From Raillietiella orientalis (lineage: Eukaryota), in the NCBI GenBank assembly GCA_036172245.1, contig JAYWIR010000076.1, positions 186,001 through 250,000 on the forward strand: 64,000 bases of DNA, written 5' to 3'. Each line of letters begins with the position of its first letter. The stretch's first letter is position 1. Both the position numbers and the translations under genes were made by a program. Under the pieces are notes generated by a model that was not told where the DNA came from, searched no databases, and worked only from the letters and a program-made list of their open reading frames with translations. This document shows, piece after piece, positions 4,041-43,320 of this stretch.

Positions 4041-4245
4041 TTTATTACCCGGTTGCGCCGGGACATTTTTTAACAAAATCAAATCATCTGGGAACTAAGT
4101 TCCCAGGTAAGGGAAAGAGAAGATGGGGAGGAGGGTTCCCGACACGCAGGCCGGGCACACAGAGAGTTCGAAACGGGTGGGAGGGAACAATAAATAAATA
4201 AATAGGAAGGGAGGGCGGGAATAGGGGTCTGCAGATTCGCCGTTC

Positions 4246-6386
4246 CTAATCTCAGAACCGGTGGTGAATGCCGCCGATCTCCGTCCTCACTTCCGCTGCA
4301 AGATTTGGCTACCTGGCAGCCATTTGCAGGTTGAAGGCTGCAGTATCGGAGACCGATGTTGGTATCGCTTGCGTCTGCAATACGTGGCAGGCCCTGACAG
4401 TGGCGCGGACGCAGCAAATGATGGCGACGACCGCTCCTAGAGAAACGCCGGCACGCGTGAAGCAGCGGCGCATCCAATCCTTTGCGGTGTGTCGGGGATG
4501 CAAGAGCGCTGAAGACAGCCTCCGCCACATTTCCTGAAGGGCACCGCATTCAAATAGCAAATGCGGAAGCGATTCCACTGCTCCGCATCTTCCACAGTTC
4601 GGGGACGCAACTTCCCCGGAAACCAGGTGCGCGAGCCAGTTGCAGTACAATCCCCAATGCACCAGCAGAAAAGCGTCCTGTTTTTAACGAAGAAGGAAGA
4701 CAGTCGTGTCCAAGCACGCAGAAGGGACCACAAGTTCTCCAGCGGGCACCCCGAAGTGCTCGCTTCACCGGAAAAGTCCCTTGGCACGAAGGCGAGGCGT
4801 GGCAGCGTCTGTTACCTCGCAAGTCCTCCAGCCGCTCAGCAGTCGGGTTACGCCTGCGACTTCGCAGGCCACCTCCCACCTCGCCGGCAGGTCACTGTCG
4901 TCTCGCACCATCAGTGCACACAGTGCTTCGGCGAGTGGCGTAGCGGCTAGGCGTGTCCACTGGTCCTCGTCTTCCAGCACCTCCCCCACTGGACAGTATG
5001 GGGAAAGGTTCACGCAACGGAGTTCCAAACGGGACACATTCTGTTGCGCTGCCCAGGACGATAAGGCTTCCTGCCTCCAGGCGTTGAGTTTCGTTGGCCG
5101 GCAGGAAATCCACCAATGCTTTTCCAGAACCGAAGCAAGCTGCTTCAGAGGGAAGCCGGATCCTTTTAAAACGCGCTCCGTGCGCAGGTGCAACGAACGC
5201 AGTCCGTCGCCATCCGTGCAGCGCCGCAGCACCAGCCGCGCTGGAGCACACCAGGGAGTAGTATAGAGCTGGGCACAAAGTGCCAGCATGCGGAAGTGCA
5301 CTAGCATTCCGATCCGCTCCAGCGTCAGGATGAACAATTTTGCATCAAGCCGAGAAGCCGTCAAGTCTTTGAAGCGGAACGTGGAGCTCGCTTGTCCCCA
5401 GAAGGCGTTTCGCAACAGGCGTTGCGCCCGGCGCTTAGCCGAGTAGGGAGGGGGACAAACAAAAAAGAGGAAAGAAACAAACGCTTCTGCTAGACAGAAG
5501 GCGCCCAAGAGAACGCCAGGGTACTTCAAGCACCTGCCCGTGGAGATCCCCAGGCGGATTCAGGAGGACTGCCCCTCCCACGTAGAGCCAACCGGTACAA
5601 CGGCTGATTTCGTCCTGTTGACGCTCAGGCCCGCTCCCCGACGAATGAGCTCGAAGAAGTCCTCGAGCCTAACGCCGGGGTGGACATGGGCAGCAGCAGG
5701 AGAAGGTCGTCAGCATAGGCGGCCACGGCCGGTGTTCCCGGGCAGGAGCTCGGAAGGTTGGCCAGCGTCAGCCTGTACGCCCTCAGCACCAACTCAAAGA
5801 AGATGCTGAAGAGCAGGGATATTAAGCTGTCTCCCTGCCTGATACCCCACCGTATGGGAATGCCGTACACGTGGCTTTCGCTGAAAGAGATACAGCATAA
5901 CGCGTGGCGCCAGCAGGAGCGCAAGTAGGCGATGAGGTGCGTCGGGAGGCCTAGGCGTCCCAGAAGCTCCAGAAGGAGGTCCTGGTTCACGCTGTCGAAC
6001 GCTTTTCAGAGATCGACGCCGACCGCTAAGGCCATCGGCGTTACATCGTGCCCTGAACACCGCCGCTTACCTTTGGCAGCGGCGATTTCGGCTGCCTGTC
6101 TCTGCTGCACCACACGCTGCTGCAACTCGAACCATGTTCGCGCGAAGAAGAGATTCGCGTCCATGGACCGACCCGGAACAGCATACGTCTGCTCCGGACT
6201 TACCAAGGACTCTGCGATTCTCTCCAGGCCCGCGACCCATAGCTTGAAGAACAACTTGACGTCCGAATTCACCAAGGTGATCGGACGCCAGTTGCTTAGG
6301 TGGCGCAAATGACTGCCTTTCGGCAGGAGCCGCACCTTTGCTGAGCGGAAAAAAGCGGGAACATCTCCCGTCTCACGCATCAGCGA
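4246..6386 (-). pseudogene. H ORF2, RT and C-terminal part (frameshifted)
   Basis: NWRPITLVNSDVK, GIRQGDSL, AYADDLLL, CGRCGAVESLPHLLFEC. Confidence 0.9.
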
Positions 6387-6524
6387 CGGTCGCGTATGGA
6401 CGTGCTTTTGCGTCGCTTCGCGGTAGATTGGCTTTTGTGTGTTTTTGTTCTGCTGTGCTTCTGTGCTGCAATGGGAGCAAAGAAGAACATCAGCCGCAAG
6501 AAGTGAACGCCACCTGCTCCTGAG

Positions 6525-8550
6525 ATGGCTGCTCCGGCTGCTAGCAAGGAGCCTCTGTCCTCGCCGACGGCGAGGACTTTCGCCAAGGTCGCTGCCCTCG
6601 CGGCTACGACGGGACCTTCGCCCGACAGCCCTGAGCTTCAGGCGTATGTAGCAAATGGCTACACGCCTACACTCAGGTATAAGGTAAGTGTCCTTATGCC
6701 TGAGCGGGTTGGGCGCGAGTTTGGCCAGGAACTCCAACGGATTGGAGTTCAAAAAGGCCAACTGGAGTCCATCATGCCCACGAGGGGGTGCGGCTACTGG
6801 GAGGTATCCAGTAAGGAAGCTCTCCTTACGCAGCGTTTGCTGCACACGCCGCTGCTCATTCGTGGGCAGGAAATACTCCCTGTCACGACGGACTAGTCGT
6901 TCGTTGTCCGGCTCAGTGGAGTGTGTAAGGGCCTTTCGGAACGGCAGGTCGTGGAGGCCCTTGAAAAATTCGCTACCGTCCACGCGCTTTGGAGGCTGCC
7001 AAACCCTGCTGAAGGGTTCGAAGACCACCACAGCGGGCTCGCGCAAGTGCGAGTGACGATGACGGATCGCCGTGCAATGCCCACGCGACTGCAGGTGGAT
7101 GGAATGACCGTCCGCCTGTGGTTTGCCGGGCAAACGCGTGTATGCGCGGAATGCGGGCAGGAGGGTCACCGCCTCACGAAATGTCCCTCGGCCGCTTACG
7201 GTTACTGACACGAGCACGGGCACACTAAAGGAATGTGCCCGGAGCTCCTTTTAAAAAACGAAAAGTGCAGGAACGAATCGCGTTCCGCATCGCGGAATAA
7301 TCGCCGCGATTCGAGAGAAAGAAACAGCAAAGCTTCGAAAAGCGTTGCGAAAACCGCGACCACGCACGTGCAGAAAAGTGTTTCTCGCCCCCACAAAGAA
7401 GGGGTGAAAAACACAAAAAAACTCGTCGCGGCAAAGCCTCCGGCTATCGACCCGAAGGAAGCTCGCGAAGAATGCGACCTTTCTACGAGACCTCGCAGCC
7501 AATTGTTGAATGCAGGAGACATTCTGCCGAAGGTCAAAGAGCCTCGTACTGTCGGCATCACGACCGCGAAGCCTCGTACCAAGGCCTCGACGAGCGGCGC
7601 GGAATGCGGTCGTTCGCCCGATACGGGAAAAATGCGCCCTCGGGCAAAGAACACCGCGCCGTCTGAAGCTACCACGGCCAAGGTGCCCCAGGCGCCGAGT
7701 GCCGCGAAGAAACAGCCGGAAAACCCGCAGTCCTCGCGCGCGGACGCAGCGCCTACTGCGGCCAAGGAAGGAACTGCTAGGGCGAGCACAACCGCTACAG
7801 CAGTGCCGCCAACCGTCGCAAAGGCAACGCGCGAACCCTCCGATCTGGAAGAGGCAGCGCCTCTCGCGATCGCTAAAAGAGTTGCTTACGCCTGCGTGGA
7901 GGCAGCACTCCAACAGGCAGCCAAGGAAACGCCTCTTACATCCGTGGAAGCAGCGCCATCTCAGGATGGCAAAGATAACTGCGATGCGAAGGAAGACGGC
8001 TGGATGCAGGTGAGAAAGGAAATTGAAAAAAACCTTCAAGTTCCTCGCAAATCTGTGTGAAGGTGAGTGGACGCAAGAAACCCGCGAAACCATTCCCCAA
8101 AAAGATTGCGATCCCTTCCTCCTTTGCAGTCGTCCTCTCGCGGATGGAGCGGGAAGCTGCTGCTGCGGCTGAAAAAACGAAAGTCCCAGCCGCAGTTGCA
8201 GAAAGCGCTAGGAAACAGGGAGCGAACAATTCCCCTAATTCCGGGAAACAGCAGCAGCGCCTGGCAAGCCCTCGACTGTCGGATCCTAATCCAGAGTCCG
8301 ACAGAAAGAGCACACAGCGCGGCAACCGCCCGAAACCGCGCAATCGCCTCTTGAAGACCCGCAAGCGCGTGGTTGCCGAGGAGCAACTGTTGCTGGGGAG
8401 CAAAGAGGAGGATAAGGACCACACCTCTGAGCTACCGCAAAAAGCAGTGCGGCTTCGAATGGAGATGTCCAGTCTCCGAGATCGACCGCTCTGTCTCGTG
8501 ACCACTCTCCGGACAAGGCGAGAATTCTGTGCTCACCTTTCAAGCCTTAA
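6525..8550 (+). pseudogene. A ORF1 (gag-like, CCHC knuckles), with stops and frameshifts
   Basis: GYTPTLRYKVS motif, CAECGQEGHRLTKC, basic low-complexity tail. Confidence 0.85.
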
Positions 8551-11500
8551 TGCAGGAAGTCGCCTTTTTTCGTCGATTCAGCGTAGCCTGTTGGAACGTC
8601 AATGGGCTGCGCAGGGACGGAAAGAGGCGCGACGTGTCAGACACCCTGCGACATTTCGATTTGGCGATCCTTCAGGAGATGCATTACATCTCCGATGCGG
8701 AGGTTGCGGAAATCGAACAGCGCGCGGGTGGCACCCTGTACTGGCAAGAAGGTTCTGCACAATCGTGCGGAGTTTGTTTTCTCGTCAATAGTAGGATGGC
8801 GGGAGCGGTGCGCAGCGTTCGATTCGACCAGGAAGGGCGAATGGGCAAACTTGTACTCGATTCAATCGACCTCGTCGTAACGAACGTCTACGTGCCGAGC
8901 GGCTTTCATCTGCGTGTCGAAAGAATCGAGTTCTTTGACGTGCTGGAAAGCCAATGGCTCAGAAACTTTGAAGCCAGAGTGCCGCATCTCGTCGCAGGGT
9001 ACTTCAACGTCCACCTGCTCTCCAACGAGACGCGGTCCCTGGCGGAACGGTCGCGGGTGGAAGAGGCATGCGCGTCGGTGCACGCGCGTAACTTGGAAGC
9101 CGGCGAGCCTGGACTGGAAAGGTGCGTGGATCACCTCTATCTCGATAAACACCTACTCTCGCGAGTGGGAAGGAGAGGCAGGGTGTCGTCCACGTTATCG
9201 GACCATGATAGGCTGGAGTTCGAGCTACTCCTGTCGGGCAAGGGACCTCCAAACAATGTCTGGAGGATGCCAGCGGATTGCTGAGTCATCCGGAAGCGGC
9301 GGAGCATCTTCGTTAGTTCCTTCGCGGCTTTGCCATCCGGGAACTCGCAGACTGGGACCATCTTAAAAGATCGGTTCGCGAGTTTTGCGACCGGTTGCCT
9401 CTGCACCTGCTATCACGCGGCTTCAGGGAAGGCGTGGCCAATAGCAGAGCATTTCTGCAGGCGCGCACCTTCTGGAGACGTGCGGAAGTCCGGCAACTCG
9501 CAGAGTACAAGGCGAGGGCCGAGCGCCAGGTCTGGCAGTATGGAGCGGCTATTTTGCTCGACGACCAAGGCCGGGAATGCACGGCTCCTGCCGAAGTGCG
9601 GCGAGCACTAAAGCGCCACTTCTCCTTGCTCTACGCTAATTCCCCGACGGATAGAGTCCTCTCCGAACTACTTTTGCCGCGGGCTGCACATGGCATCGGC
9701 GAGGAGGAACGCGCTCGTCTCGACGAGCCCTTAACGGCGGAAGAAGTTTCTTCCGCCATCGCAGGACTCAAGAGACGGAAGACGCCAGGTGAGGACGGAC
9801 TGTCCGCAGAGTTCTATCAGAGCTTCGCGGCGGAACTGGCCCCACTGGTGCTTAGAATCTCGACGCTGATGAGGGTGACGGGCGATGTCCCTTCTTCCTT
9901 CCGCTCAGCGAGGGTGCGTTTCCTTCCGAAAGGAGGGGATCTGCGCCAACTCAACAACTTTCGTCCGATCACAGTAGTGAATACGGACGTCAAGTTGTTT
10001 CCGAAGCTGTGGGTCACGCGCTTAGGGGAAGTCGCGGAGTCCGTGGTAAGCCCGCAGCAGTCTTACGCTGTACTGGGTAGATCCATGGATGCAAACATTC
10101 TTTTCGCGCGCACCTGGTGGCAGCTTTAAGAGCTCGTTGCGGCGGATAGCCGAACAGCGGCAAGACTTTCTGCCGACTGCGTGCGCCAGTGCGGACGGAC
10201 GGGAGAAAGGCCGGGAGCCTTGGCACTAGCAGTAGATTTGCACAAAGCATTCGACTGCGGAAACCAGGAACTCATCTTCGAGCTCCTGGAGCGTCATGGG
10301 CTTCCGAATCATCTTCTCCTGTACTTGCGCTTTTGCTGGCGCCACGCGATTATCAACTTGTATTTCAGTGGCTCCCGCGTGTACGGAGTGGCCGTGCACA
10401 GAGGCATCAGACAGGGGGACAGCTTAAGCCCGTTGCTCTTCAGCATCTACTTTGAGTTGGTGCTAAAAGCGTACAGGCTGACGCTGGCCGTCCTGCCCAG
10501 CGCCTCTCCGTGCACTCCGTCCGCGGCAGCATAGGCAGACGACCTTCTGCTTCTGTTGCCCATGTCCACTCCGCCGGACTCGTTCCAAGACTTCTTCGAG
10601 CTGATCCGTCGTGGAGCGGTCATGAGCGTTAACAGGGCGAAGTGCTTTGTCGTGCCGGTGCGTGCGTCGTAAGAGGGACAGGCCGACTGGATCCGCCTGG
10701 GGATTCCCACGGTCAGGTACTTCAAGTACCTTGGCGTACCGTTCGGCGAATTCTGCTCGTCTGAATCGTGGTCGGCCTGTCTTCCAAAGGCAGAGATGGC
10801 TCTAGGCCCGTTCCTGGAAGGCAAGTTCGTCTTGCCGGAAAGGGCGTGCATATGGAACACTTTTCTTGCTTCCCTCCTCCGCCCCTTATTTTTTGTTTGT
10901 CCGCCTCCCTATGTGGTTAAACTCCAAGCGCAGCGTCTCCTACGTAAGGTCTTGTGAGGCGCTGCACGATCCAGGGTTCGACTTAAAGATTTGGTAGCGC
11001 CATGCCAGCACGCAGGCCTGGGCATCCTCACCATCCAGAAGAATGGACTGCAAGTGCAGTTCCGGCTTCTATCCCTATGTGGGAAATTGTGGTCTAGTCA
11101 CTGGTGTGCTCCGGCTCGCCATATTCTCCAGCGATGTGTCGGCAGTGCAGGATTGCTTTCGTTGCTGCCGCGCAACCTTCGCCGGAGAACTGGATTTGGC
11201 TACCCACAGAGGCATTTGTCCTCGTTGCTGTTAGCCCGTTCCTGGATTTCGTGCCGCCCCTTTAATTGGAATGCTTGGTAGCAGGAAGCTCTGGAGCACT
11301 GGACGTCCACTTTGGATGTACGCGAAGAGCAACTGCGACCCTCACAGGGCCTCTTACGCCAACCGCTAGGAGTGATCCTACAGGACTGGTCGCTTTGGTC
11401 CCGGATAGTCGTCTCACCCATCGCCGCAGCGCTGTCTGCTCTTAGGGCAAACAACGACAGTAGCCAACCGGCAAAGTGGTAGTTCTTCTGCAGCATTGCA

Positions 11501-12110
11501 GGAGTGGGAAGACTGCTGAGCGGCTGCAGAACGAGCGTGTTGGTAGACGCTGCCACTACTCGTTACCTGGCAAAGTGGCTTTTTCGTTGGAGTGAGATTC
11601 TTGAATTACTCCCCGAAGATCTCGTGGTCTTTTCCTTGAGTGTGGACAGCTCCGTGTTCCCGCTTCAATGGAAACAGGATGTTCTTTTTTTTGTGCACTG
11701 GGGATTGCAGTGCAATAAGCGCAGAAACTTGGTTACAGTGATAGTCGTCTCCACGAACTGCCTCAGGTGCGGGGCGATAGAATCGCTTACGCGCCTTCTC
11801 CTTGAGTGTAGTGACTTTCGGGAGTTATGACGGAGACTTGCTTCGGCACTTCGTCGTCCTCAGGAGACTGCCACAGACCTGCTTCGACGCTTCTTCAGCA
11901 AAGACGGACTGGATAAAGGCGCTGTTATTGCAACAATCTCTTACATCCGCGCCATCGTGATCGCCCGCCGTAAACTAGAAGGAAGCTCACAGCGAACGGA
12001 CGCCGCCAGAATCGCGGCGAACCTTATGAAAGCTGCTGTCAGGTGGCCTCATCTGCCCAGAGAAGTCTCCAGGGAAGTCGCCATTGTCAAACAGCGCTTC
12101 TAGAAAGATT
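8550..12110 (+). pseudogene. A ORF2 (APE endonuclease + RT), disrupted
   Basis: CWNVNGL, LQEMH, TNVYVP, SDHD, KTPGEDGL, NFRPITVVN, GIRQGDSLSP, A*ADDL, CLRCGAIE. Confidence 0.92.
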
Positions 12111-12638
12111 AGGAACGTTTACTACCAAAAATCCCTGACCCCACTCTTCACTGTTTTTTTGTTTGTTCTCTTATGTTTTGTTTATTTTGTATCCTTCTCC
12201 CTCCGTTCCTTTCTTTTGGGAGGCAACCTGCGTGCCGGTGATCTTTCTGAACTGAACTTTCTGTATGGGCGTTCCTTGTGTCTTGAAAAGATGAATTTGC
12301 CTTGAAGATTGTATTCGTTTTTACAAATAAACGTTCCGACGCAACCGGGTTCGATACGCATCAGCGAGGAAAGGCTTAGCACCAGGGGGACGAGCTTTGC
12401 CGCGAAGCACTGAAAGAACTCCGCGGGCAGGCCATCCTCCCCAGGCGCCTTACGCCTCTTCAGGCCCGGTATGGTGTAAGATACTTCTTCCGCCGTGAAG
12501 AGCAAATCCAATGTGACGCGTTCCTCCTCGTCGATAGCAGGGTTACCCGTCGGCAGAAGCAGCTTTAAGAGACTTGGTTCCGTCGGATTCCTAGCATACA
12601 ACGAGTAGTAGAAGCGCCTTCGGAGGCGGCAACGGCGG

Positions 12639-17351: not shown

Positions 17352-19850
17352 AACGTCGGCCGCTCCCGAGTATTCCAGGCCCTGGCCGTCGAGTAGACAA
17401 GCCGCTCCTGACTGCCAGAACTGGCGCTCGGCCTTGGCTTTGTACTCCGCAAGGTATCGGACGTCCGGGCATTAGGAGAATCGTCTGGCCTGCAGAAACT
17501 CTCTGTTGTTGTCCACTCCTGTCCACAAGCCACGGAAAAGCAGGCGCAAAAGGAAACGGCAGCAGAACTCGCGGACCGATCTTTTCAGATCGTCCCAGTC
17601 CACGAGCGAGAGCGAACGGGTTTTTGTTTCGCTCTTTAGCGTGTGTGGTTTTATTTTATTTTTTTTTTCTTGGTGTGCCAGTGGATTCGGTGTTGGCTAG
17701 GCAGCAATGCCTGGCACCACCACCAATGTGGAAGAGGGGGCGACGTCTATGTCGCCTCCCGAATCAATGGATGTGGGGGCAACCGCTTCCACAGAAGCGA
17801 CTCCCTCGCTAGGGAGAAGCTGTAGTTCCGTGGCTGCTTTGCCAACGCAAGCGGCTGCGGCTGAATTGAAAGCCTACCTGGAAAAGGGGTACAATCCCCC
17901 TCTACTCTACAAGGAAGCTAACCTTTACTCCTTTGAGTGTACACGCGCTTTCTCGAAAGCGATGCACTCCCTCAAAGTACCCCAAGAGGAGCTCTTGGCG
18001 ATGACCATCAAAAGTGGTGGACAGTACGCTGAGGTGATTTGCAGAGAAGCAAGTCTTTCCCAGCGTCTGATTCGTACATTTGTTTCTTTGGGGAATCGCC
18101 GGCTCCTCCCCATCACGGAGGATAGATCTATCGTGATCCACCTCCTCGGAATCACCTTCCGGATGGCCGAAGAGGTTGTCCGAAAGGATTTAATTAAATT
18201 CGAAATTGTCCACGCGTTGTGGAAAAAGCCGACTTTGTTTTGAGAGTACGGTCTCCTGAATCCCGGTATGAATTCCGCGCGCATTACGTTCCTCGAGGGT
18301 TGCTCCATACCAAACAAGCTGGAGGTCAACGGCGAATCCGTTGACATCTGGTATGTTGGTAAGCCGCATTTCTGCGGGCATTGCAGCACTTCACGTCACC
18401 TGAAAAAAAGGTGCCCCCACTTGCAGTGCAACCAATGCAAGCAACCCGGGCACACTCTTCCAGTGTGCCCTCCAAATGAAGTCCGCTTCGCGTCCGCACG
18501 GAATGCGAAGAAGCGCGCGGCGAGAAAACGAAGAGTTCAGGCAGCCCTAAAGAGAGCCGCCGACAGAAACGCAACTATCTTGAACCAGGTGAAGGTCAGC
18601 TCCGAGATCTTGGAAAACTCGGACAAGGTCGAGGAGAACGGCCAGGAACCTGGATGGCAGGAAGTAGAATCCAAGAGGCAGAAAAGACTCAAGAAACCAA
18701 AGAAAATGTCGCAAACCTCAACCAAAAATTGCCGCGCCGCGAAAACATCAAACGCTGCTCTGTCGTCATCAAGTGCATTCCTGCGGTCCAAGAGAGCGTC
18801 AAAATTGCACTCGTGGCTGCCGACTCTCAGCCCTCCGGCAAATGAGTGACGGAGGCTATTTACCCGACGGTGGCGTCCGTCGTCGAACGCATGCTCGACG
18901 ACGGCGCCTTTGAGCGATGGGGGAAGGAGCTCGCTGCGTCCTTGCTGCGTCCCCTTAAATCCGCGAAAAAGGCCTTAAGGCGTCCGACCTCGATCAAGAA
19001 GTCGGAGATTCCGAACTCTGACGCAAAGGCGGAAAACACAGCCTGCGGCATCGCGCCCTCCCGCCCGAAGGCCAATCGCACGAAGAAGGCTACCCGCAAA
19101 ATTATCCCGTCCATGGAAAAGGGAGAGTTAATTGGAAGAAGAGAGCGTGCGAATTAAGTGGGGAACTCCGGGGACTCTCCTCGAGAGGTAACCTCACGCT
19201 GCGACCCTGGAGGGAGGGAAAGGGTAGAGTCTGTGCCCCAGTTGCTTCAAGTGCCTGAGATGGCCGCGGCGCCCTTAATTGCCCCTCCAACCTGTCCCTT
19301 GACAAGTGCTGCAACGCCACGTTCCCAGCCTTAATGCCGGGAATCGCCTCTTGCTGCCGTCTGCGAATTGCCTGTTGGAACGTCAACGGGCTAAGCGACG
19401 ACGGCAATAGACGAGACGTGGCCTACACCCTGGCGTCGTTCGACCTGGTGCTGCTGCAAGAGATCCACGTGATCTCCGCAGATGAAGCAACGGAGATTTC
19501 TCACCCGGTCATGCCGGGGCGTTTATTCCATATAACATAACGAAAAAAAGCAATTATACAAAATAAACCAGTTGGGAACCAAACTCCCAACCGACGACTG
19601 AACAAGAATGAAGAGAACATTGCTGACACGCAGGCCAGAGTAACAGTTTCTTGAACGGTGTGGGGGGGCGGGAAACACAAAGAAACCAAACTAAAATAAA
19701 AACAATGAATAAGGAGGACGGGATAAGAGTCTTTGGGATCGCTCTGGAAGACACGGGGATAAAAGCATGGGCACCGGAAATTTCACCGAGCGAACGGGGA
19801 CGAAGTATGGGTGAGCGAGAGGTCCCAGGGGTCACCGGATTACGCCGTTC

Positions 19851-22800
19851 TCAAAGGTCTGTAAACCGGCGATGTATGCCGGTGATGTCCTCATTCACCT
19901 TGTCACGAAGATGAGACCACCTTGAAGCCTTCTCCATGAATTGAGATGCAAGCAGGTGAGCCTCCCTTCGCTGCGATGACAACTCCAGGGCGTAGCGGGC
20001 CTTCACGATGGCGCGAACGCAACACATGGTTGCGACAATCGCGCCAACCGAAAGTCCATTTCTGCTGAAGAAGCGCCGCAGCACATCAATGGCAGTGCCT
20101 CCTTGTGGCATGATGGCCGAAGTGAGCCTTCGCCACAGTTCCCGGAGGTCACCGCAGTCCAGCAAAAGGTGCGAAAAAGACTCGATCTCTCCGCACCTTA
20201 AACAGTTTGGCAAAGCAGCTCCCCCGGAAAAGATGCTTCGCTGCCTATTACAGTGAAATGCACAATGTAAAAAGAGCAGCACATCTTGTTTCCACTTAAG
20301 GGGGAACACGGAGCTGTCCAAACAAACGGGGGGAACCACTATCTCTCCGGGGGGCACACTTAAATGTTCGCTCCACCGAAGCAGTCCCTTCGCCCGATTC
20401 CGAGGTGTGGCGGCTTGCACCAGCTCCTTCGTCGTCCAGCTGCCGAGGAGCTTACTGACTCAACCTATTTTGCAGGAGAACTCCCATTCCGCCGGTAGGC
20501 AACCGTCGTTGCTTGCCCTGAGGGCAGACAGCGCTGCGGCGAGTGGTGTGGCGGCCAGACGATCCGACAACTTCTTGTCCTGCATGACTTCGTCCATTTG
20601 ATGACTGAGGAGAAGTCGCAGGCGTCGAAGATCTTCCGGGCGCGTTCCTTCGGAAGCTGCCCACGATGAAAAAGATTCCTGCCGTCATGCATTAATGTTC
20701 ATGGGGCGGCAGGAGATCCAGCTTTGGGCTTCCAGCAGTGAGGACAGCTGCCTCAGCGGGAAGCCAAACCCTATTCTGGTGTGCCGATAGTGGGGTAGCA
20801 ACGAAAGCAGTCCCTCGCTTCCCGTGCAGCGCCTCAGTATAAGGCGTGCGGGTAAGCACCACGGCGTACACCACAGCTTGGCACAGAGCCGCAGCATGCG
20901 AAACTGCACCTGCAGTTCGATGCTGTTTAAGTCGAGGATGCCCAAGCCTGCATCCCGACGCGGCGCCACCAAGTCTTTAAGTCTAACACGGGATCTTGCA
21001 GCGCCCCACAACGCTTTGCGTAGAAGGCGCTGCGCCCAGACTTTGACTTCCTGGGGGGGTGGAGAAACAAAAAACAGGGGGCGGAGGAGGGGGACAACGA
21101 AGGTGTTCCAGATGCAGGCCCGTTCCGGCAAGACGAACTCGCCTCCTGAAAACGGGCCAAGTGCACGCTCTGCCTTCCGAAGGCAGTCCGACCACGCTTC
21201 TGAGATGCAGAAGTCGCCCAACGGCACGTCAAGGTACCTGAGGTACCTGCCCGTGAAGATCCCCAGGTCGATCCAGTCGGACTGCCCCTCCCACGTCGCA
21301 CCCACTGGAACAACCATACACTTACTCCTGTTACCGCTCACGCCTGCACCGGGACGAATCAACTCAAAGAAGTCTTCAAGCGATGTCGCCCGGGTGGACA
21401 TGGGCAACAGAAGAAGCAGGTCGTCGGCATAGGCTGCCACGGCAGGCGTACCTAGACAGGAGCTCGGCAGGTTGGCTAGCGTCAGCCTGTAAGCCTCCAG
21501 CACAAATTCAAAATAGATGCTGAAGAGCAGCGGGCTTAAGCTGGCACCCTGCCTAATTCCTCGTCGTACCGGCACGCCGTACACGCGACAGCCACTGAAA
21601 ACAATGGATGTAATCGCGTGGCGCCAGTAGGAGCGCAAGTACGCCAACACGGATGCCGGAAGACCCAGACGTTCCAAAAGCTCAAGAAGAAGCTTTTGGT
21701 TCACGCAATCGAAAGCTTTGTGCAGATCGACTGCAACCGCCAAGGCTCCCGGTGTCTCCCTTTGCGTCCGGCGCCTCCGTCGGTGAGAGATCGAAGGCGT
21801 CGCTTCCGCACGACGATCCACCGCCACACGATGCTGCAATTGCAGCCATGTGCGGATGAACAAGAGATTCGCGTCCATGGACCGCCCAGGAACAGCGTAC
21901 GTCTGCTCCGGACTTACCAAGGATTCCGCGATCCTACCCATCCGCGCCACCCAAAGTTTCGAGAACAGCTTGACGTCCGAATTCACTAATGTGATTGGAC
22001 GCCAGTTGTTCAGTTGGCACAAATCTCCGCCTTTCGGCAGTAGACGCACCTTCGCTGAGCGAAACGAAGCGGGGACATCGCCCGAGTCTCGCATCAGCGA
22101 CGAGAGTTGGAGCACCAGGAAGATGAGCTCCGCCGCAAAACACTGAAAGAATTTCGCGGAAAGCCCATCTTCGCCTGGCGCTTTTCGTCTCTTGAGCCCC
22201 GAGATGGCCGAGGAAATTTCCTCTGCCGTGAAGGGCTCATCAAGACGCGCGCGTTCCTCCTCGTCTACAACAGGTGCATCAATCGGCAGAAGCAGCCGGG
22301 AGAGGCTGCGTTCCGTCGGTGCCTCTGCATACAGAGAAGAGTAATAGCGCCTGACTATCCGTCGCACGTCGGCTGGAGCCGAGCATTCCCGGTCCTGGTC
22401 GTCGAGCAGAACTGTCGCCCCTGACTGCCAGACCTGGCGCTCGGCCTTGGCCTTGTACTCGGATAATCGACCAACGTCCGCGCACCTGGAAAAGGAGCGG
22501 GCCTGCAGAAAATCTCTGCTGTTGGCTACGCCCTCTCCGAAGCCGCGCGGAAGCTGGTGCAAGGGAAACCGGCAGCAGAACTCGCGGACCGATCTTTTCA
22601 GATCGTCCCAGTCCTCGAGCTCACTTATGGCAAAGCCGAGGAGGTACTGGCGAAGATGCTCAGCCGCCTCCGGGTGGCTTAGCCAGTCTGCCGGCATCCT
22701 CTAAAAACAGTTTGGAGGCCCCTTGCCTGGCGGGAGCAACTCAAACTCGAGCCTGTTGTGGTCTGAAAGCACGGACGGCACGGGACCTCTCCGACCCACT

Positions 22801-23423
22801 CGACAGAGCAAGTGTTCATCAAGGTATACGTGGTCCGGCGTTGCTGCCATAACAGGGTCGCTAGCGAACAAGTTGCACGTGTGCACGGACGCGCACATCT
22901 CTTCCGCTAGCAACTTTTCCCTTTCGTGGGATCTATTCTCGGAAAGCAGGTGGACGTTAAAGTCCCCCGCAATGAGATGGGCCACAGTAGGGCGGGATCG
23001 AGTGAGCCACTGGCTTTGAAGGGTACCGAAGAACTCAATCCTTTCGGCCCATCGTCCAGCACCGCTCGGCGCGTACACGTTGGTTACGACAAGGTCGATC
23101 GAGTCGGACCACTTGAGTACAAGCTGTCCCACTCGGCCTTCCGTGTCGAAACGAACGCTGCGCACCATTCCCGCCAAAGTTCCTCGCACGAGGGAAGCGA
23201 CGCCGCACGTACGTGCAACGCCGCACCTATAAAGTAGCGTTCCGCCCGCGCGCCGTTCGATTTCGGCAGCCTGCTCTCCGGAGATGCTCTGAATCTCCTG
23301 CAGGAGCGTCAAGTCGAAGGCGCGCAGAGCGTCAGCCACTAGTCGCCTCTTCTCCTCGTGTTGGAGCCCGTTGACGTTCCAAGACGTTACGGCAACACGA
23401 CGAGAAGACGCGATTGCCCCCAT
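19851..23423 (-). pseudogene. D1 ORF2 (endonuclease-RT-Cys motif), with a stop at 22701-22703 and frameshifts after ~20690
   Basis: SWNVNGL, LQEI, AGDFNV, SDHN; 670-aa RT segment with YADD; CLRCGEIESFSHLLLDC. Confidence 0.93.
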
Positions 23424-25327
23424 CACGGCTGGGAAAGCGAGGCCGTGGTGCTCGCCTCACCCGGCGAGCGGGCAGTAAGCAGCACGACGGGCTGGAGGGC
23501 GCGGTCGCCACCGGCCTCAACTGTGCTGCACGTAATCGGGTGCTCCTCCCCGGGTGCAGAACCTGTGGGTTTTGAAGTAAGCACTCGCCGTTCCGCGACG
23601 AGTATGTCACGCCTCAGGGCTTCAGCCCTGCGGGCGCTCGCTCCCGCGCGAGTTACGCGTCGTTCAGCTGCGTTATCGGACTTTTTTGCGGAGTCTGATG
23701 CTCGCACGATCGACGTGCGCTTGCATCCGTCCGATTGCACCGGAATGGTCTTCTCGGCGGTCACAGAAGCGGACTTGCACACGTTGAAGGCGCTGGCTTT
23801 TTCCTTGGAAGAGTCACAAGCCCCGCGTGTTTTCGTATTCCCGCGACTGCTTTTTCCTTTGGAAGAGCTCAGGGATGGAGGTTGCGTAGCTTTTTTTGGA
23901 GATTTTTCTTTCCTCCTCTCCACAACCTTCCATTCGCCTTCCCGATTTTCGGAGGCTTCCGCGACAGTAGTTGCGGAAACCTCCGGGATTTTCGCTGCGT
24001 TCTCTGGGGGCGTTGCTTTCGCTACGCCTTTAAAAAACGGCAACGGAGTCACCTTCTTGACAGTCGGGAGATTGCTCCTCTCGTGCCGAGTCGGCGATGG
24101 GGCGACTGCATGCAGCGTGCTTTTGCTCGTCGCGACGCTGCTTTTTACTGCTTTCGTAGCCTTTGCAGTGGGGCCTGCACTGCAGTGGGGCTGTCCGGAA
24201 CTCCGAAGGGACAACGGAACGGGGCAAGAAGTCTTCGCACTGTTGCGATTTTCCTGTTTTCCTACCTTTCCCTCCAGGGTGTTACGGAGATTTCCTGGTT
24301 CCAGGCTCGGAAAGGTGCCTGCGAGTTCGGCAGAGAGGGAAGGCACGGCACGCGTCAAACCCTCGCGCCCCTTTTTAATTGGCTTCCCCGCCGTGACTTT
24401 CCCCTTTCGGGGCGTTGCGGGCGGGGATGCTTTCTTTTTATCCGCCGATCGCTCGTGGTTTTTTTCGAGTTTTTGCGGACGACGTTTTTTATTTGCCGCT
24501 GCGGCTTTTCGTGCAGTGGTCTCTTGAACCCGACGAATTTCCGCTGCGGCTCTTTTTCTTGCAAGTACCGGGCACTTCTTGATTTCGTGCCCGGAATCTT
24601 TGCAATAGCGGCATCTTGGAGAGGGGCACTCTTTAATTCGGTGCCCATCCTTGCCGCACTGCTCGCACGCGCGACTCTGGCCTATGAACCACAGGTGAAC
24701 GACCGTGCCGTTCACCTGCAGCTGCTCAGGCACAACACGCCTGTTCGCGACGGTGATCCTCGCGGAGGCTTGTCCACTGTGGACAGAGGGGAAATCCTTT
24801 AGAGGATTTGGCCTCCTCCACAGAGCGTGCACGGTGGCGAACTTCGCCAGCACACTTACGACATCGCGGTCGGAGATTTCCGGTTCGATGTCGCACAATT
24901 GAACGACAAAAGAGTCGTCCATCGCGGTAGGTAGGACTTCCTTGCCATTGATGGTCAACGGCGTACGGAGAAGGCGCTGCACAAGTGCTGCGTTCTTGCA
25001 CCGAATCTTCGTATAATCCATCCTGCCAGCAGGCATTATGGCAAGGAGTTCCTCCTCGCGAACGCCTATCCGGACGAGCTCATCATTGAGCTCACGACCG
25101 ATTCTCCCGTTAAGTGGCCCACTGACCTTATAACGGAGTGCAGGCATGTATCCTGATGACACATATGCCTGGAACTCCGCATCGCAGGGTCCGGGTCTTT
25201 GGGAGGTAACGACGGCGTAACTCCTCACCGGGGGCGAGGAAACCATTACGGAGGATGCGGCCACTTCAAGTGCAGCTGAAGTGCATCCAGTGGCTTGCTC
25301 CTCCACACTATCCTGTGTACTGGCCAT
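23423..25327 (-). CDS. D1 ORF1, 634 aa gag-like nucleic-acid-binding protein with two CCHC knuckles
   Basis: Open from ATG to TGA; CEQCGKDGHRIKEC and CRYCKDSGHEIKKC; the TGA overlaps the ORF2 ATG. Confidence 0.88.
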   Translation of the reverse strand: MASTQDSVEEQATGCTSAALEVAASSVMVSSPPVRSYAVVTSQRPGPCDAEFQAYVSSGYMPALRYKVSGPLNGRIGRELNDELVRIGVREEELLAIMPAGRMDYTKIRCKNAALVQRLLRTPLTINGKEVLPTAMDDSFVVQLCDIEPEISDRDVVSVLAKFATVHALWRRPNPLKDFPSVHSGQASARITVANRRVVPEQLQVNGTVVHLWFIGQSRACEQCGKDGHRIKECPSPRCRYCKDSGHEIKKCPVLARKRAAAEIRRVQETTARKAAAANKKRRPQKLEKNHERSADKKKASPPATPRKGKVTAGKPIKKGREGLTRAVPSLSAELAGTFPSLEPGNLRNTLEGKVGKQENRNSAKTSCPVPLSLRSSGQPHCSAGPTAKATKAVKSSVATSKSTLHAVAPSPTRHERSNLPTVKKVTPLPFFKGVAKATPPENAAKIPEVSATTVAEASENREGEWKVVERRKEKSPKKATQPPSLSSSKGKSSRGNTKTRGACDSSKEKASAFNVCKSASVTAEKTIPVQSDGCKRTSIVRASDSAKKSDNAAERRVTRAGASARRAEALRRDILVAERRVLTSKPTGSAPGEEHPITCSTVEAGGDRALQPVVLLTARSPGEASTTASLSQP

Positions 25328-28300
25328 GTTGCACTATGCTACTTGGCAGATTGCACAGGAACACATAAGTGCGAGCAAAAACGCAGGCACAAAGTTGCCC
25401 GATCGTTGGCGCGGATAGACGCGGAAACACGTCTGCACAGTACGAGTGCAGGAGATCGAGCGTATCTCGGGTGGAAGGCTGCTGTGGCGTTGCTGCACCG
25501 TTAAATCTTGCGGTGACGCGTTCTTGCTTCGTCCAGCTGTAGAGGCTCCGGCAAAGGGCGTGGAGTTCGATAGTGCCGGTCGCGTCATGCAGTTGAACAT
25601 CAGGTGGTCCGACTCCATCCATCCGGTCCTTACCAACGTGTACGCCTGAAGCGGCAGCGACGCGCTAAGGGCAAAGGCGCGGAGAGATTTCTTCCTTACC
25701 CTGAGGCGTGAATATCTGGACGGAGCGGGAGTGCGCAAAGCGCACCTAGTCGCAGGTGACTTTAACCTGCACCTGCGGTCAGGTGCGTCCGACACTCTTC
25801 GGAATCGCGTGAACGTGCTGTGCGCAGAGATGCACACGCGCAACTTGTTCGCGGGAGATCAGGAAATCGCCGACTGCATAGATCACGTGTTCCTTGACCA
25901 GCACCTATGCTCACGCGTGGGCAGGCGCGGCAAGTTCCCTTCGAAACTGTCGGACCGTGACCGGATCGTACTCGAGGTGCGCCCACGCGATTAGGGAACC
26001 CCGTCATCTGCGTGGCGCTTAGTAAAAAGGCTTAGAAAAAAAATTCTACTCCTACCTGTACGCGCGCTTCACTGGAACAGGATGTCTCGCGACTTCTTCT
26101 TCCGGAAGGCGCTCCGGCGATCGGGGAGGAAGATAGAAAGTCCCTCGACGAGCCTTTGACGATGGGCAAGATCATCTCGGCCATCTGAAAGCTCAAGAGG
26201 CTAAAGGCTCCAGGGGAGGACGGCCTGCCAGCGGAATTTCTTTAATGTTTCGCGGAAGAGCTCACTACTCTTGTGAAGAAACTCACCTTGCTGATCCGCG
26301 AAACGGACGACGTCCAGGCCTCGTTTCGTTAAGCAAAGGTGCGTCTCTTCCCTAAGGGAGGAGACCTTCGGACCGTGAGCAACTGGCGGACTAATACCGT
26401 GATAAACGCGGACGCCGGGTTGCAGGCGAAATTGTAGGCTGAACGCCTGCGGCGGTTAGCGGAAAGCTTCATTAGCCCGGAGCAGACATATGCTGTTCCC
26501 GGGCAGAGCATGGACGCCAACCTGTTCCTCGCCAGCACCTTTCTGGCGCTACAACAGGAAAGGGTCAGGGTATGCAACCGGACTTCCGCAATGTCCGCCG
26601 CTAGTCAACGGGACGGTTGGTGAGGGGAGGGAGCCCTCGCAGTCGCAGTCCATTTGCATAAAGCATTCGACTGTGTCGACCAGAGGATCCTGCTGGAGCT
26701 CCTGGAACGCTTGGGCTGCCCGGTATCCTTGCTGACCTACCTGCGATCCTGCTGGCGCGACGCGCTCATCCACATCTTTTTCAGTGGACACACCGTGCAC
26801 GGCGTACCGGTGCGACACGGCATACACCAGGGAGACATCCTGAGTCCCTTGCTCTTCAGTACTTACTTCGAGTTGGTACTGAGAGCGTACAGGGAAACTC
26901 TAGCGCACCTGCCGAGCGAATATTTCGATGCGCTTGCGGTGTCAGGATATGCAGACGACCTACTGCTGCTGCTCCCTATGTGCACCCCGGCATCGGCGGT
27001 CGAGGAGTTCTTCCACCTGCTAAGTCGGGGAACCGGGATAGAGGTGAACAGGGCGAAGTCGTCCGTCATGGCAAACGGTGCGGCGTCGGCAGGGCAGCCG
27101 GACTGGCTCCGTTTGGTGATTTCCACGGTACGGTATTTGAAGTACCTCGGTGTACCCAAGGATAATTATCTCCTTTGGGATGCGTGGTCCAGCTGCCTTC
27201 AAAAGAGCTCGGTAGAGCGGCTGGAGCTCCAGCTCCAGTTTCGGTTATTCGCCCTAGTGGCGAAATATTGGAGAAGGAGCTGGTGCGATCCCGCACGTCT
27301 CCTTGTCGAAAAGGCTACAGGCAATGTAGGACTGTCATCCTTCCTTGCGCTCCGTCGTCGCCGCCAAGGCGGTCACTGCGGGTTGCATCTGCAGAGAGTG
27401 GCTCACTTGATGAGGTTGAACGCAGGATGGCTCTGCTGTCGCCCCGTTAACATACCTGCATTGCTGCACGAAACGGTTCAAACGTGGGCAAGGAGCAACC
27501 AGCAACGCACTCAAGAAGGGCAGAGACAATTCCTGGCCCGTAATGACCGCCTGGCGCTCCAAGAGTTCCTGGAGAACCTCCAAAAACAAGCGTGAGCAAG
27601 AAAAACTCCCCTCACTGCAATGCTGTTTTCGCTCGGGGAACATTTAAACGGCAACACTGCTGCGCAATAGGTTGTTTATGTAAAAATCTTTTGCACGGAG
27701 AAAATGATCGTGGAATGGAAAACGGGAATTCTCTGCGATACCGCGGCCTGGAGTACCACCCCTATTGGACTTTTGCGCTGAAGAGAGCTGCTAAATGTTA
27801 CGCGGGAACAATTATGATTGCCCCTGTAGCTGATGAACACCTCCACCCTCCTCTTAAAATGGCAGGAGGCGGCGCTATTCTTGCTGAATTGGGGACTTCC
27901 ATGAAACGCTTGTCGACACCATTGGAACTAGGGAGCGGTGAACCCTAATTGTGCGAGGTGTGGAGAACGGGAGTTCCTCACTTACCTCCTTTTGGATTGA
28001 GTGGCTTTTCGGTCCCTTTGGAACCGTTTTGTCGCGGCAATCGGTATCCCCTGTAGCAACCCCAGAGACGTAGTTAGATGCCTCTTCGTTTGCGACGCCC
28101 TTCTGCCATCGGCCTCGTTAGCAGCTCTGTGCTGCTATCGCAGGATCGTCGCTGCATGGAGCGAAGCAACGGGAGGACCTCGCGATAAGTGTGCCGTCCA
28201 GTGAGCAGGAGAATTTATGTGGACGGCGACAGGATGGACCCTTCTGGAATCAAACATCCAATAACAGCTTGCCGGCATCCTGCAATGGATGTAACGGCCC

Positions 28301-28539
28301 CACAGCAGACTGTGATCCCTTCCCGTGCCTTCCAGATCTTGATTTTATATATTTCTCTTTTCTGTTTTATTTTTTGTTATGTCGTTGGCCTCTCTGCTGT
28401 CGTGGTTAACCGTAACGGAATACGATCCGGTGACCCGGCTGGCTTAATTTTGTATACCAGTGCGTGGCCGGTCCACCTGGTCAGCACCAACGTTTGTGTT
28501 ATTCGAAAGAATAAACGCACCGGCGCAACCGGGTGAAAA

Positions 28540-29343
28540 ACGAGCTCTCGAACGGCCAAGGTTCGAAGATGCTGGCGGAGGTGCTCCGCAGCCACCGGAT
28601 TTCTCAACCAGTCGGCCGGCAACCTCCAGACGTGCGTCGGAGGGCCCTTGCCAGGCGGGAGTAATTCCAACTCCAGCCTGTGGTGGTCGGAAAGCTCTGA
28701 CGGCACGGGACCTATTCGACTTACCCGACAATGCAGGTGATCGTCGGGGAACACATGGTCCGGCAAAGCACGCATCACGAGATCGTCGGCTAGCAAATTC
28801 GACGCGTGCACGGACGTGCACACGTCGTTCATTATCCGTTTCTCCTGGCGACGGTGAGACTCCTCCGATAGCGCGTGGACGTTAAATTCCCCGGCTACGA
28901 CGTGAGTTACGTCGGTGCCGGAGTTGCTTAGCCAGCGGTCGCGCAGTCTCTCGAGAAACTCCTGTTTATCGGTGCGACGCGCGGAGCCGCTCGGCGCGTA
29001 CACGTTCGTGACGACAAGGTTGATCGATTCGTACCACTTGAGAACAAGTTTGCCCACACGACCTTCCTCGTCGAGACAAACGCTCCGCAGAGCTCCCGCC
29101 ACCCTACTCCGGACAAGGAATGCGACTCCGCAGGTATTCTGGGAGTTTGACCTCCAATGAAGCGTCCCGCCTGCGCGAACTTGCAGATCGGCCGCTTGCT
29201 GCTCGGAGAGTGAGAGAATCTTCTGCAGCAGGGCCAGATTGTAGTCGCGCAAGACGTTGGCAACCAATCCCTTCTTCTCTTTGTCCTGCAGCCCGTTGAC
29301 GTTCCAAGAGGCCACTCACGCGACGGGAAGCGAGACCGCGCAT
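28540..29343 (-). pseudogene. H ORF2 endonuclease domain
   Basis: ASWNVNGL, TNVYAPSG, AGEFNV, SDHH. Confidence 0.9.
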
Positions 29344-29348
29344 TGCTG

Positions 29349-30710
29349 CTACGGACATGGGAGTGCGTTCCTCGCCCCGTCCGGCGAGGCATCAGCCGGG
29401 AGCAGGTCGGATGAGGTCGCGCAAGCGCTTCCTGTCCCCGCCGCGCCGCTCGCGGCTGGCTCGATGGAGTCGAGGACCATTACCTCGGGCTCCGAGGAGT
29501 ATCGGGAACCGTTCCCGGCATCAGGCTCTTGCCTGGCAAGTTTTGGCTTGCGCGCAACAGTGGCCTTGGTCGGGGCTTGCCGAGCCTTAGCGCTGCCCTC
29601 CGACTCCACCTCGGGGTCCAAATTGCGCGCGCGCGGCGGGGGTTTCGCCTGTTTTTTTTTTTTGCTGGCAGATCGGAGCTGGTCCGGCACTCTTAGAGGG
29701 TGCCTTCGTCGCCGATCCCCCTTTCGGGTTCACGGCTTCGGCAGCTCCCCTCTCGCCGCGGGTTTTTGCGGCAACGCGCGCGGCGGCAGCAGAGGCTTTA
29801 TCTTGCGCCCTCCTTGGCGCGCGGGGCTGCCTCTTCACCCCGCCTACCTTTTTGATCGGGAAGTGGAAAGGATCGCGCGGTTTGCGCTATTTCTTCCTTC
29901 CCTCAACAAAGGTGCAGCCATCCTCGCCGCCTTCCGGTTTGCCTCGGTTGGGCGCGAGGGCTTCCAGGGTCCTTTGCATCCTTTCCAAGGCCTCGGATAC
30001 GGCGATGTAGGGCAGTGTCTCCTTCGCTAGGTCTGTTTTTTGCACCTCCTTGCCGGAATGTGCGGGCAGAGTGGCGGGATTCTCGGAGGTCGCGCGAGGC
30101 TTTTCAGCCTTTGCTGGCGTACGGCCCGCTGTGGCCGGCTTGCTTGTCGCGGACAAAGGGGCACGCGATTCGTTTTTCGCCGCTCCGGTGGACTTCCCGG
30201 GCGTGCTACCGCTATTTCTCTCCGGAGAGAGAGCGGACCGAATGGGTGGTTTTGCCACCTGCCCGATGTTATCGGCGGGCTGGGTCGCTCGGGGCTTTAC
30301 GGAAGCAGCTTGGAGAAGCTTCTTGTCCTTTCGCGCGGGTTTTTGTGGAGCATTGCTCCGAGACTCTCCTGAGCAAGCTGACTTTTCACTTCTCCGCCGC
30401 GAATTCTTGTTCGCGCCGGATTTCTTCCTCGACGACGGGGCGGATGGAGTCGACGCGGACGGCGATATTGCGGGGAGATTTCTCGCCCTTCTCTTTTGTT
30501 TTAGCTCGGCGCTCTCGTTAATCGAGTGGCCGAGCAGCTTACAGTATCGGCAACTGCGTGTTCGGCACTTCCGCGGACGGTGGCCCTCCTTCCCGCTGTC
30601 GCATCAAGCAGGGGTTTGCCCGGAAAACCGGAGATAGACGACGACGTCACCGAGGAGGATCTGCGAAGGCATGAGCCTCCGGTCGTATATGGTGACGCGC
30701 GCCGTGGCGA
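29349..30710 (-). pseudogene. H ORF1, 3' portion, disrupted
   Basis: ARVTIYDRRLMP...GQT, GKEGHRPRKC, CRYCKLLGHS, Lys/Ala-rich tail. Confidence 0.75.
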
Positions 30711-30975: not shown

Positions 30976-30989
30976 TCGATGCGATTGTC

Positions 30990-43142: not shown

Positions 43143-43320
43143 CTTCAATCTCCGCCTACTGGCAGGTGCGCCAGAAACACAATAGAACGCGATGAACGAG
43201 TTGTGCGCCGCCATGCGTGCGCCAAACTTGTTCGCGGGTAAGAGAGGATTGGTTCGAGCATCGATCGCGTCTTCTTCGACGCTGACATGTGTTCACATGT
43301 CGGCAAACGGCGGAGGGTTG
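43143..43320 (+). pseudogene. Host endonuclease fragment resuming at (D)FN after F1
   Basis: FNLRLL...NELCAAMRAPNLFAG...IDRVFFD. Confidence 0.75.

Follow-up and report, generated by a model that had tools for sequence, protein, structure and literature searches.

Nested LINE insertions in a GC-rich island of Raillietiella orientalis and repeated use of two of their insertion sites

INTRODUCTION

Some long interspersed nuclear elements (LINEs) are sequence specific, for example R1/R2 in ribosomal DNA, TRAS/SART in telomeric repeats, and Tx1L inside another transposon. The endonuclease of such an element, of the apurinic/apyrimidinic (AP) or another type, picks a defined sequence in a multicopy target, and the insertions lie at the same site and in the same orientation in every copy. 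Here we describe LINEs nested in one another in a 64,000-nucleotide stretch of the genome of Raillietiella orientalis (GenBank assembly GCA_036172245.1, contig JAYWIR010000076.1, positions 186,001 to 250,000 of the forward strand; hereafter the window, with position 1 as its first letter). An earlier note on this DNA had proposed that a single element, H, is stretched over 26.7 kb by insertions and that orientation alternates at each nesting level, as in a Russian doll. The Russian doll is real, except for its outermost shell, an element called G.

Several described systems bear on such a locus. In the passage of PMC3446292 that concerns it, the Zepp cluster has a GC content of 61% against 53% in the surrounding genome; the brief account in PMC8226300, which cites Higashiyama 1997, says that Zepp insertion "targets existing copies" and mentions head-to-tail arrays of 5'-truncated 3' ends. 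REANNOTATE "defragmentation," as outlined in its abstract-level description, rejoins collinear fragments after younger inserts have been removed and takes nesting order as relative age (PMC2672092). Finally, tandem dimers are summarized as arising when a transposable element inserts twice at a single site (McGurk and Barbash 2018, PMC5932611).

RESULTS

H is one collinear copy in four pieces

H is a 5'-truncated, minus-strand element whose pieces span positions 4042-30710 (26,669 bp). We placed fragments in protein coordinates by tblastn with the proteins of D (the most intact copy) and F, two other LINEs of the window. Piece 1 (28540..30710) holds residues ~189-266 of open reading frame 1 (ORF1), where the truncated copy starts, endonuclease residues 23-248 and reverse transcriptase (RT) residues 1-28. 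Piece 2 (17352..17607) holds RT residues ~32-112 and carries at its ends the target site duplications (TSDs) of inserts B (17352-17359) and C (17602-17607), and piece 3 (12356..12638) holds RT residues ~112-204 between the TSDs of A (12356-12367) and B (12631-12638). Piece 4 (4042..6386) contains RT residues ~201-671, the 3' untranslated region (UTR), the 3' hairpin CCCGGCGCAACCGGGT at 4047-4061, and the other copy of TSD A at 6375-6386. All four pieces lie on the minus strand.

When A, B and C (with D) were excised in silico and one TSD copy was kept per join, the rejoined minus-strand H (28546-30710 + 17360-17607 + 12368-12638 + 4042-6386) measured 5,029 bp. A single blastn high-scoring segment pair (HSP; H 1402-3590 to D 2067-4257, 72.7% identity, 30 gap columns in 2,205) aligns it with D across all three joints, at H 2165, 2413 and 2684, and the matches of H to M (70.4%) and A (69.3%) likewise run across the three joints as one. 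The alignment is free of gaps at two joints, and a single 1-nt gap lies 7 nt from the B joint. Piece 4 by itself is 75.2% identical to D by blastn. Every piece is nearest to the D/M/A group (69-78%), with identities to F, B or C of at most 68% over comparable lengths. Thus, the proposal that H is one element over ~26.7 kb holds, the pieces being collinear after excision and matching D, M and A in single HSPs, and the pieces do not belong to different clades.

The earlier note also placed the three hits in H near the linker between endonuclease and RT, and this proved correct: the joints span 519 bp of the interval that separates the endonuclease from the Pfam RT domain. Random placement of three hits in 5,029 bp brings them this close together in 3.0% of trials.

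TSDs and the inserts of H

All four TSDs that had been quoted are located exactly at the junctions. TSD A is a perfect 12-bp repeat, ACGCATCAGCGA, at 6375 and 12356; TSD B measures 8 bp with one mismatch (AACGGCGG at 12631, AACGTCGG at 17352); TSD C, ACGAGC (6 bp), is found at 17602 and 28540; and TSD D, GGAGAT (6 bp), at 19492 and 25451. Among ~200,000 random position pairs examined as a control (±2 nt slack), an exact repeat of at least 6 nt occurred in 0.67% of cases and one of at least 12 nt in 0.0015%; four repeats at predefined junctions are not due to chance. The strands of the elements, determined by tblastn, are as listed before. Each insert of this first nest (nest 1) has a complete 5' UTR start ~85-120 nt before the ATG and the hairpin motif at its 3' end.

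Insert A (6387..12355, plus strand) is full length (5,969 bp) and consists of 5' UTR, ORF1, endonuclease, RT and 3' hairpin, with 5 stops in its RT reading frame. Insert C, also on the plus strand, is itself divided. Its left part (17608..19497) comprises the 5' UTR, ORF1 and the endonuclease to residue ~66, ending with TSD D (19492-19497), and its right part (25451..28539) comprises the endonuclease from residue ~62, an internally deleted RT and the hairpin at the 3' end. Once rejoined, C measures 4,973 bp and aligns with F as a single HSP through the D joint, and the placement of D inside C is upheld, as excision of D restores the collinear match. The C copy lacks the equivalent of RT residues ~2-126, at 26021 to 26063, and of residues ~511-593, at 27208-27221; the linker stretch that was hit three times in H lies in the first of these gaps.

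D (19498..25450, minus strand) is full length (5,953 bp) and, lying inside C, the youngest. Its ORF1 is stop-free over 636 codons, and its ORF2 has one in-frame stop in 923 codons. The longest open frames of D contain 671, 636 and 251 codons, against maxima of 283 in A, 411 in H and 323 in C, elements that contain many stops. That the innermost D is the most intact element agrees with the inner elements being younger.

Insert B is less complete. Its 5' part (also labelled P; 12639..13648, plus strand) consists of the 5' UTR and ORF1 to approximately residue 285, followed by a deletion scar, with the alignable end at ~13582-13648. Next comes E (13649..14383, minus strand), a 5' UTR with ORF1 to residue ~207, antisense in B and 73% identical to the 5' part of M; E is thus M-like and corresponds to the 5' end of an element that we call Z. 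The 3' part of B (14384..17351, plus strand) runs from RT residue ~50 to the 3' end and begins with CAGGTTTCGGCGAC, the duplicated target of the Z insertion. B is missing its ORF1 C terminus, endonuclease and RT residues 1-49, and E everything past ORF1 residue ~207. Because E keeps its 5' end and not its 3' end, it is no simple LINE insertion. What stands of the statement that E lies inside B is the antisense 5' junction at 14383/14384; the other junction was probably lost to a later deletion. In nest 2, described below, Z runs from 54753 through ORF1 into the endonuclease at 56553-56768. The simplest reading is that Z inserted antisense in B and that one later deletion in nest 1 took both the middle of B and the Z 3' part. 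E and the B 3' part were also considered as a twin-priming inversion of one element. This was rejected: E is M-like, the B RT shows only 52-56% protein identity to the D/M type, and the partner junction is present elsewhere.

The outer shell

G (3728..4041, plus strand) is a 314-bp, F/J-like ORF1 fragment adjoining the 3' end of H; it is 80.5% identical to 37140-37457 and 70.0% identical to 43933-44252. The claim that G contains H was not borne out. Sensitive blastn and tblastn, queried with the part of J and F (two further elements of the window) that comes after the G fragment, found no continuation of G to the right of 30710; a minus-strand 3' hairpin end is located there instead. It belongs to K (30711..31004, minus strand, 5' limit approximate), a short 3'-end fragment that lies head-to-tail with H and has its hairpin at 30716-30730. 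K is followed by K2 (31005..32225, minus strand, limits approximate), a 5'-truncated copy with an ORF2 C terminus and 3' UTR. The C terminus is recognisable at 31361-32225 and matches the ORF2 C termini of B, B2, D, H, C and F by tblastn. In this arrangement H is the last member of a head-to-tail row, K2-K-H, and is not demonstrably an insert in G. A TSD for H was not found, its boundary being unfixed because the 5' start aligns too weakly to D or A; the 10 nt between the 3' end of K and the first alignable bases of H loosely resemble the H 3' flank (CGCCACGGCG vs CGCCGACGC).

Nest 2 contains an inverted duplicate of nest 1

The second nest had been offered as a repeat of the same strand alternation. 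It is not an independent replicate. Segment S1 (51167..55479, minus strand) is an inverted duplicate of 13649-17957, which includes E, the B 3' part, H piece 2 and the C 5' end, and is 88.0% identical to it over 4,332 columns. The alignment is unbroken through the E/B, B/TSD/H and H/TSD/C junctions, and the four parts of S1 are 90.6, 89.4, 87.2 and 86.6% identical to their counterparts. The elements named H2, B2 and E3 are therefore duplicated H, B and E with three junctions in common with nest 1, and since S1 runs through the same junctions, the orientations H2(+), B2(-) and E3(+) were inherited and cannot be counted twice. Both ends of the block are sharp; one is set by the nest-1 deletion and the other by P'/B3 sitting in the C copy. 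Z persists past residue 207 in nest 2, which places the nest-1 deletion after the duplication.

Z (E3 of the earlier note; 54753-56768 + 63098-63395, plus strand), with its M-like 5' part, is the host of D2 (56769..63097, minus strand), a second D-family copy that lies in the endonuclease gene of Z. X (57252..61730, plus strand) in turn replaces the middle 4.1 kb of D2, the equivalent of D 19982-24083, and does not simply split it; a large part of the target seems to have been deleted on insertion. With ~27% protein identity to D in the RT and its own type of 3' stem-loop (ACCCC...GGGG AAAAC), X is a divergent LINE. Its 3' flank begins with TGCCGA, as does that of F.

On the other side of S1 lies P' (B3; 48627..51160, minus strand), the 5' half of a third B-family copy; it breaks off at RT residue ~50, where it meets the 3' end of F. 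Identity between P and P' (P' 50354-51158) is 72.6%, in contrast to ~89% in the duplicated block, which assigns P' to a third copy, B3. The same difference rules out P' as the missing 5' half of B2, permuted in one event, as does the fact that E3 and F are separate elements, each with its own 5' end. A matching B-family RT fragment at 35605-36297 is 74% identical to both B and B2. F (43142..48626) and M (37662..43141) are full length and J, which ends at ~37661, is represented by its 5' part only; all three are on the plus strand. J, M and F lie head-to-tail across 36400-48626, the M 3' hairpin being directly followed by the short 5' UTR of F. The remainder of J was found nowhere in the window.

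Orientation of the insertions

We counted each insertion event once across the window and did not recount duplicated junctions. Eight nestings are opposite in sense (A/H, B/H, C/H, D/C, Z/B, D2/Z, X/D2 and F/B3) and three are in the same sense (M after J, B3 in the C copy, and Y in Z at 63404), which gives a two-sided binomial p of 0.23. With the one-sided H/G junction added, 9 of 12 are opposite (p=0.15); with same-site pairs counted once, 6 of 9 (p=0.51). An alternating-orientation rule is thus not established (8 vs 3, p=0.23), and an antisense bias is possible but not shown by the window. The nests with both junctions kept (A, B, C, D, D2 and X) are antisense in 6/6 cases (p=0.03), and in all 3 same-sense cases the junction is one-sided and the far (downstream) half of the host is lost.

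Two insertion sites were used twice

D and D2 are 92.6% (448/484) and 94.7% (1,294/1,367) identical in the parts that D2 retains, whereas their host flanks are 76.9% (100/130) and 66.7% (134/201) identical. The step is located at the element ends: on the left, the last 100 nt inside match at 95/101 and the first 100 nt outside at 75/102, and the right edge gives 94/100 vs 67/101. Both D joints lie at the equivalent of F 44980/44981, antisense and following GGAGAT, a sequence that is present at the D site in 3 of 8 aligned endonuclease copies (C, Z and F), two of which are occupied; A, D and M have the variant GGAAAT. The endonuclease stretch of C is 75.6% identical to that of F and 77.5% to that of Z, so C and Z are scarcely closer than C and F; moreover, C has its own type of ORF1, and the ORF1 regions of C and Z do not align at the DNA level. 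An origin of D and D2 by one duplication or gene conversion was rejected, as identity falls by ~20 points exactly at both element ends and the host ORF1 regions are unrelated in DNA.

The second pair consists of Z in B and F in B3. B resumes right after the 5' end of E with CAGGTTTCGGCGAC, and CAGGTTTCGGCAAT forms the end of P', immediately next to the 3' end of F. The two insertions have a common target, CAGGTTTCGGC(G/A)A, at RT residue ~50 and both are antisense; identity of the site is known from an overlap of ~11-13 nt, with one junction per event. Together the two pairs suggest insertion hot spots that would fix orientation. In addition, 5 of 11 insertion sites (A, B, C and the two at RT residue ~50) are located in the endonuclease-RT linker of ~660 bp (binomial p=0.006, post hoc).

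At the 3' junctions compared (4041/4042, 12355/12356, 17351/17352, 28539/28540, 48626/48627 and 61730/61731), the sequences after the 3' ends include ACGCATCAGCGA, AACGTCGG, ACGAGC, (A)CGCCGACGC, TGCCGAAACC and TGCCGAGTCGG. They are CG-rich and often start with ACG or TGCCGA. Such CG-rich target motifs, presumably rarer in AT-richer host DNA than within the GC-rich elements, could alone favour LINE-into-LINE insertion.

The LINE lineage and its surroundings

The GC profile shows 39-47% GC at 1-4000 and 32001-36000 and two GC-rich blocks of 52-59% (~3.7-32.3 kb and 35.6-64 kb), both of which are made of non-long-terminal-repeat (non-LTR) retrotransposon copies. These qualify as LINEs: they have no LTRs, their TSDs vary in length, and their ORF2 encodes an RT and an AP-like endonuclease. 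The RT domain (RVT_1, PF00078) was detected in ORF2 with E=2.7e-19 in D, 3e-22 in F, and 6.6e-21 and 8e-21 in X, and the endonuclease (Exo_endo_phos, PF03372) in the N-terminal part of ORF2 with E=2e-13 in F, 3e-11 in A and 4.3e-10 in D. All of these matches exceed the Pfam cut-offs (29.6 bits for RVT_1 and 24.5 bits for Exo_endo_phos), whereas zf-CCHC in ORF1 scored 18.7 bits in D and 17.5 bits in M, under its cut-off of 20.8 bits.

The 3' ends share the motif AATAAACG-(N)-CCCGG-loop-CCGGGT followed by 4-6 mostly A-rich bases in place of a poly(A) tail. Copies of the motif lie at 4042 (-), 12355 (+, with a slightly altered stem), 19498 (-), 28539 (+), 30711 (-), ~43141 (+) and ~48626 (+). The full-length copies (A, C, D, M and F) measure 5.0-6.0 kb each; H, K, K2 and P' have 5' truncations and retained 3' ends, or have just the 5' UTR clipped. 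All in all, this is one LINE lineage throughout, with a possible zinc-knuckle-like motif in ORF1, an AP-type endonuclease and RT in ORF2, and a conserved 3' stem-loop.

The best PDB match to an ORF2 is human L1 ORF2p (E=3.4e-41). In a collection of 5.8 billion proteins, 21 proteins among 8,000 candidates matched at E≤0.001; the nearest database protein, from a metagenome contig, is 59% identical, and all others are at most 29% identical. In a protein atlas, the D RT falls only in generic RVT_1 clusters that mix eukaryotes and giant viruses, so this gives no help in placing the lineage. The 3' hairpin pattern was found at 10 metagenome loci, 0/10 of which match window elements (tblastn E≤1e-5, blastn E≤1e-8), and these are therefore chance matches. 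Rfam and tRNA scans of the window gave no matches.

AT-richer DNA separates the two LINE blocks. At 35404-35593 it contains a degenerate array of ~38 units of GTTAG, a cyclic permutation of TTAGG, with 60% matches; the array stops 11 bp short of 35605, where the B-family RT fragment is broken. Arthropods have TTAGG as their telomere repeat, and the array may be what is left of a former chromosome end, or of a healed break, to which the second LINE block became joined. A weak RT remnant in the same spacer (33138-33821, plus strand; 28.8% identical to D RT residues 408-640) may come from an older, different LINE family. On the left flank, an ORF at 1014-2393 (460 codons, in DNA of 39% GC) matched no Pfam family and 0 of 7,402 candidates at E≤0.001; it represents either a host orphan gene or a reading frame that is open by chance.

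DISCUSSION

The pieces, junctions, TSDs, collinearity and duplication can be read directly from the DNA. We consider it probable that the locus is a pile-up of LINEs by successive target-primed insertions, in which orientation needs no rule beyond chance and a few preferred sites. The order of events, the single deletion and the lack of a special orientation rule are what we infer from these junctions. Copies would have arrived one by one via target-primed reverse transcription, each with a target duplication of 6-12 bp. H would have come first, in 5'-truncated form, beside K2 and K, 3' fragments that were already in place; A, B and C, all full length, would then have entered a 519-bp stretch of H, followed by Z (of which E is a remnant) entering B and D entering C. 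A single later deletion of roughly 6-7 kb would have taken the middle of B and the 3' part of Z, and a block of at least 13649-17957 would have been copied, inverted, to 51167-55479. D2, X, B3/P', F and Y would then have been inserted at the copied block.

Several observations weigh against this history as a complete account. The six two-sided nests are antisense without exception, and the count of 8 to 3 may understate a real bias; this uniformity could reflect chance, target polarity, or preferential decay of same-sense nests. Two independent insertion pairs share a site, which random target choice does not predict, and 5 of 11 sites are concentrated in the endonuclease-RT linker, even if the p value of 0.006 is post hoc. 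Furthermore, neither a TSD nor a second host half was identified for H, and a single junction carries the placement of E in B.

The repeated sites could be accommodated by site-directed nesting, in which some LINE families recognise sequences in the ORF2 of others and target polarity fixes antisense entry, an explanation that we regard as tenable but rather unlikely. Subfamilies might then home to the endonuclease and linker coding regions of other LINEs, always antisense, and alternation would be a signature of targeting; on present sequence comparisons this is a doubtful proposition. In such a scheme the D type might use ...GGAGAT/CGA and the F/Z type CAGGTTTCGGCGA at RT residue ~50 of B-type elements, an assignment that we make tentatively. 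The step in identity from 92.6-94.7% to 76.9% and 66.7% exactly at the ends of D and D2, their antisense joints at F 44980/44981, the occupation of 2 of the 3 GGAGAT-bearing sites in C, Z and F, and the shared antisense target CAGGTTTCGGC(G/A)A of E/Z in B and F in B3/P' all speak in its favour. However, there are only two site pairs in one window, and the relatives of D (A, H and M) and of F (C) occupy unrelated sites and have TSDs that are unrelated as well; any specificity is therefore not family-wide. The F/Z site is known only within its ~11-13-nt overlap, and three insertions are in the same sense. If site-directed nesting were true, the elements would parasitise each other, the cluster would feed on itself, and the five levels of nest 2 (H2 > B2 > Z > D2 > X) would alternate as a result of targeting.

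Survivorship bias is another candidate: insertions would enter in either orientation, but same-sense inserts form direct repeats with a homologous host and would be lost or scrambled by deletion, so that intact two-sided nests would be mostly antisense. That all three same-sense cases lack the downstream half of the host while the 6/6 two-sided nests are antisense fits this idea, and large deletions are indeed present (the middle of B with the Z 3' part, 4.1 kb of D2, and the gaps in C). Yet host and insert are only 65-75% identical, which would make them a poor substrate for homologous deletion; M gives no indication of a chimera with its host J, the M ORF2 being D-like and J F-like; and the numbers are tiny. 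We consider survivorship bias improbable as the explanation. Least probable by far is that the nest is only apparent and stems from inversions, other rearrangement or mis-assembly of a repeat-rich region. Rearrangement has clearly taken place in the window, as shown by the 4.3-kb inverted duplicate, several deletions and the degenerate telomere-like repeat next to the broken element at 35605. Nevertheless, the nest-1 inserts are complete at the 5' UTR and the 3' hairpin and have duplicated host flanks, and excision restores the alignment to the nucleotide; inversions or chimeras would not create TSDs, which counts against such an origin.

Successive target-primed insertion, our preferred reading, offers a clean relative chronology for several families in a LINE lineage that is poorly sampled. 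DNA-level duplication accounts for part of the apparent repetition in the window, and this matters for any count of orientations or insertion events. If the repeated use of sites were confirmed genome-wide, these would be LINEs that target other LINEs by sequence; if true, this would provide a mechanism for the growth of GC-rich, possibly centromere-like or subtelomeric LINE islands in an AT-richer genome.

Among known systems, Zepp and ZeppL of green algae (Coccomyxa, Chlorella and Chlamydomonas), as portrayed in the accounts cited above, are alike in forming LINE-in-LINE clusters of tens of kilobases with GC peaks. The GC peak of 53-59% against 39-47% in the window resembles that of Zepp, and the row K2-K-H resembles a Zepp-like head-to-tail array. 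However, those accounts present Zepp arrays as mostly 3' ends, whereas A, C, D, M and F are full length and only K2-K-H fits. Unlike Zepp clusters, the window holds several diverged families and a 3' stem-loop without poly(A). REANNOTATE is an annotation method, not a biological system; it follows the same logic as the earlier note and our reconstruction of H, and shows such nests to be routine in repeat-rich genomes. Tandem dimers, as they are summarized, are matched by the repeated use of sites (D/D2 and F/Z) and by the head-to-tail neighbours M-F and K2-K-H, but here the hits are in two different host copies and the nests are antisense. D and D2 resemble sequence-specific LINEs, although there are only 2 copies of one subfamily and the relatives A, H, M and C are elsewhere. 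On the one hand, then, as the outcome of successive target-primed insertions in a LINE-rich island, the nest itself is ordinary. On the other hand, its same-site antisense hits are the sole unusual feature.

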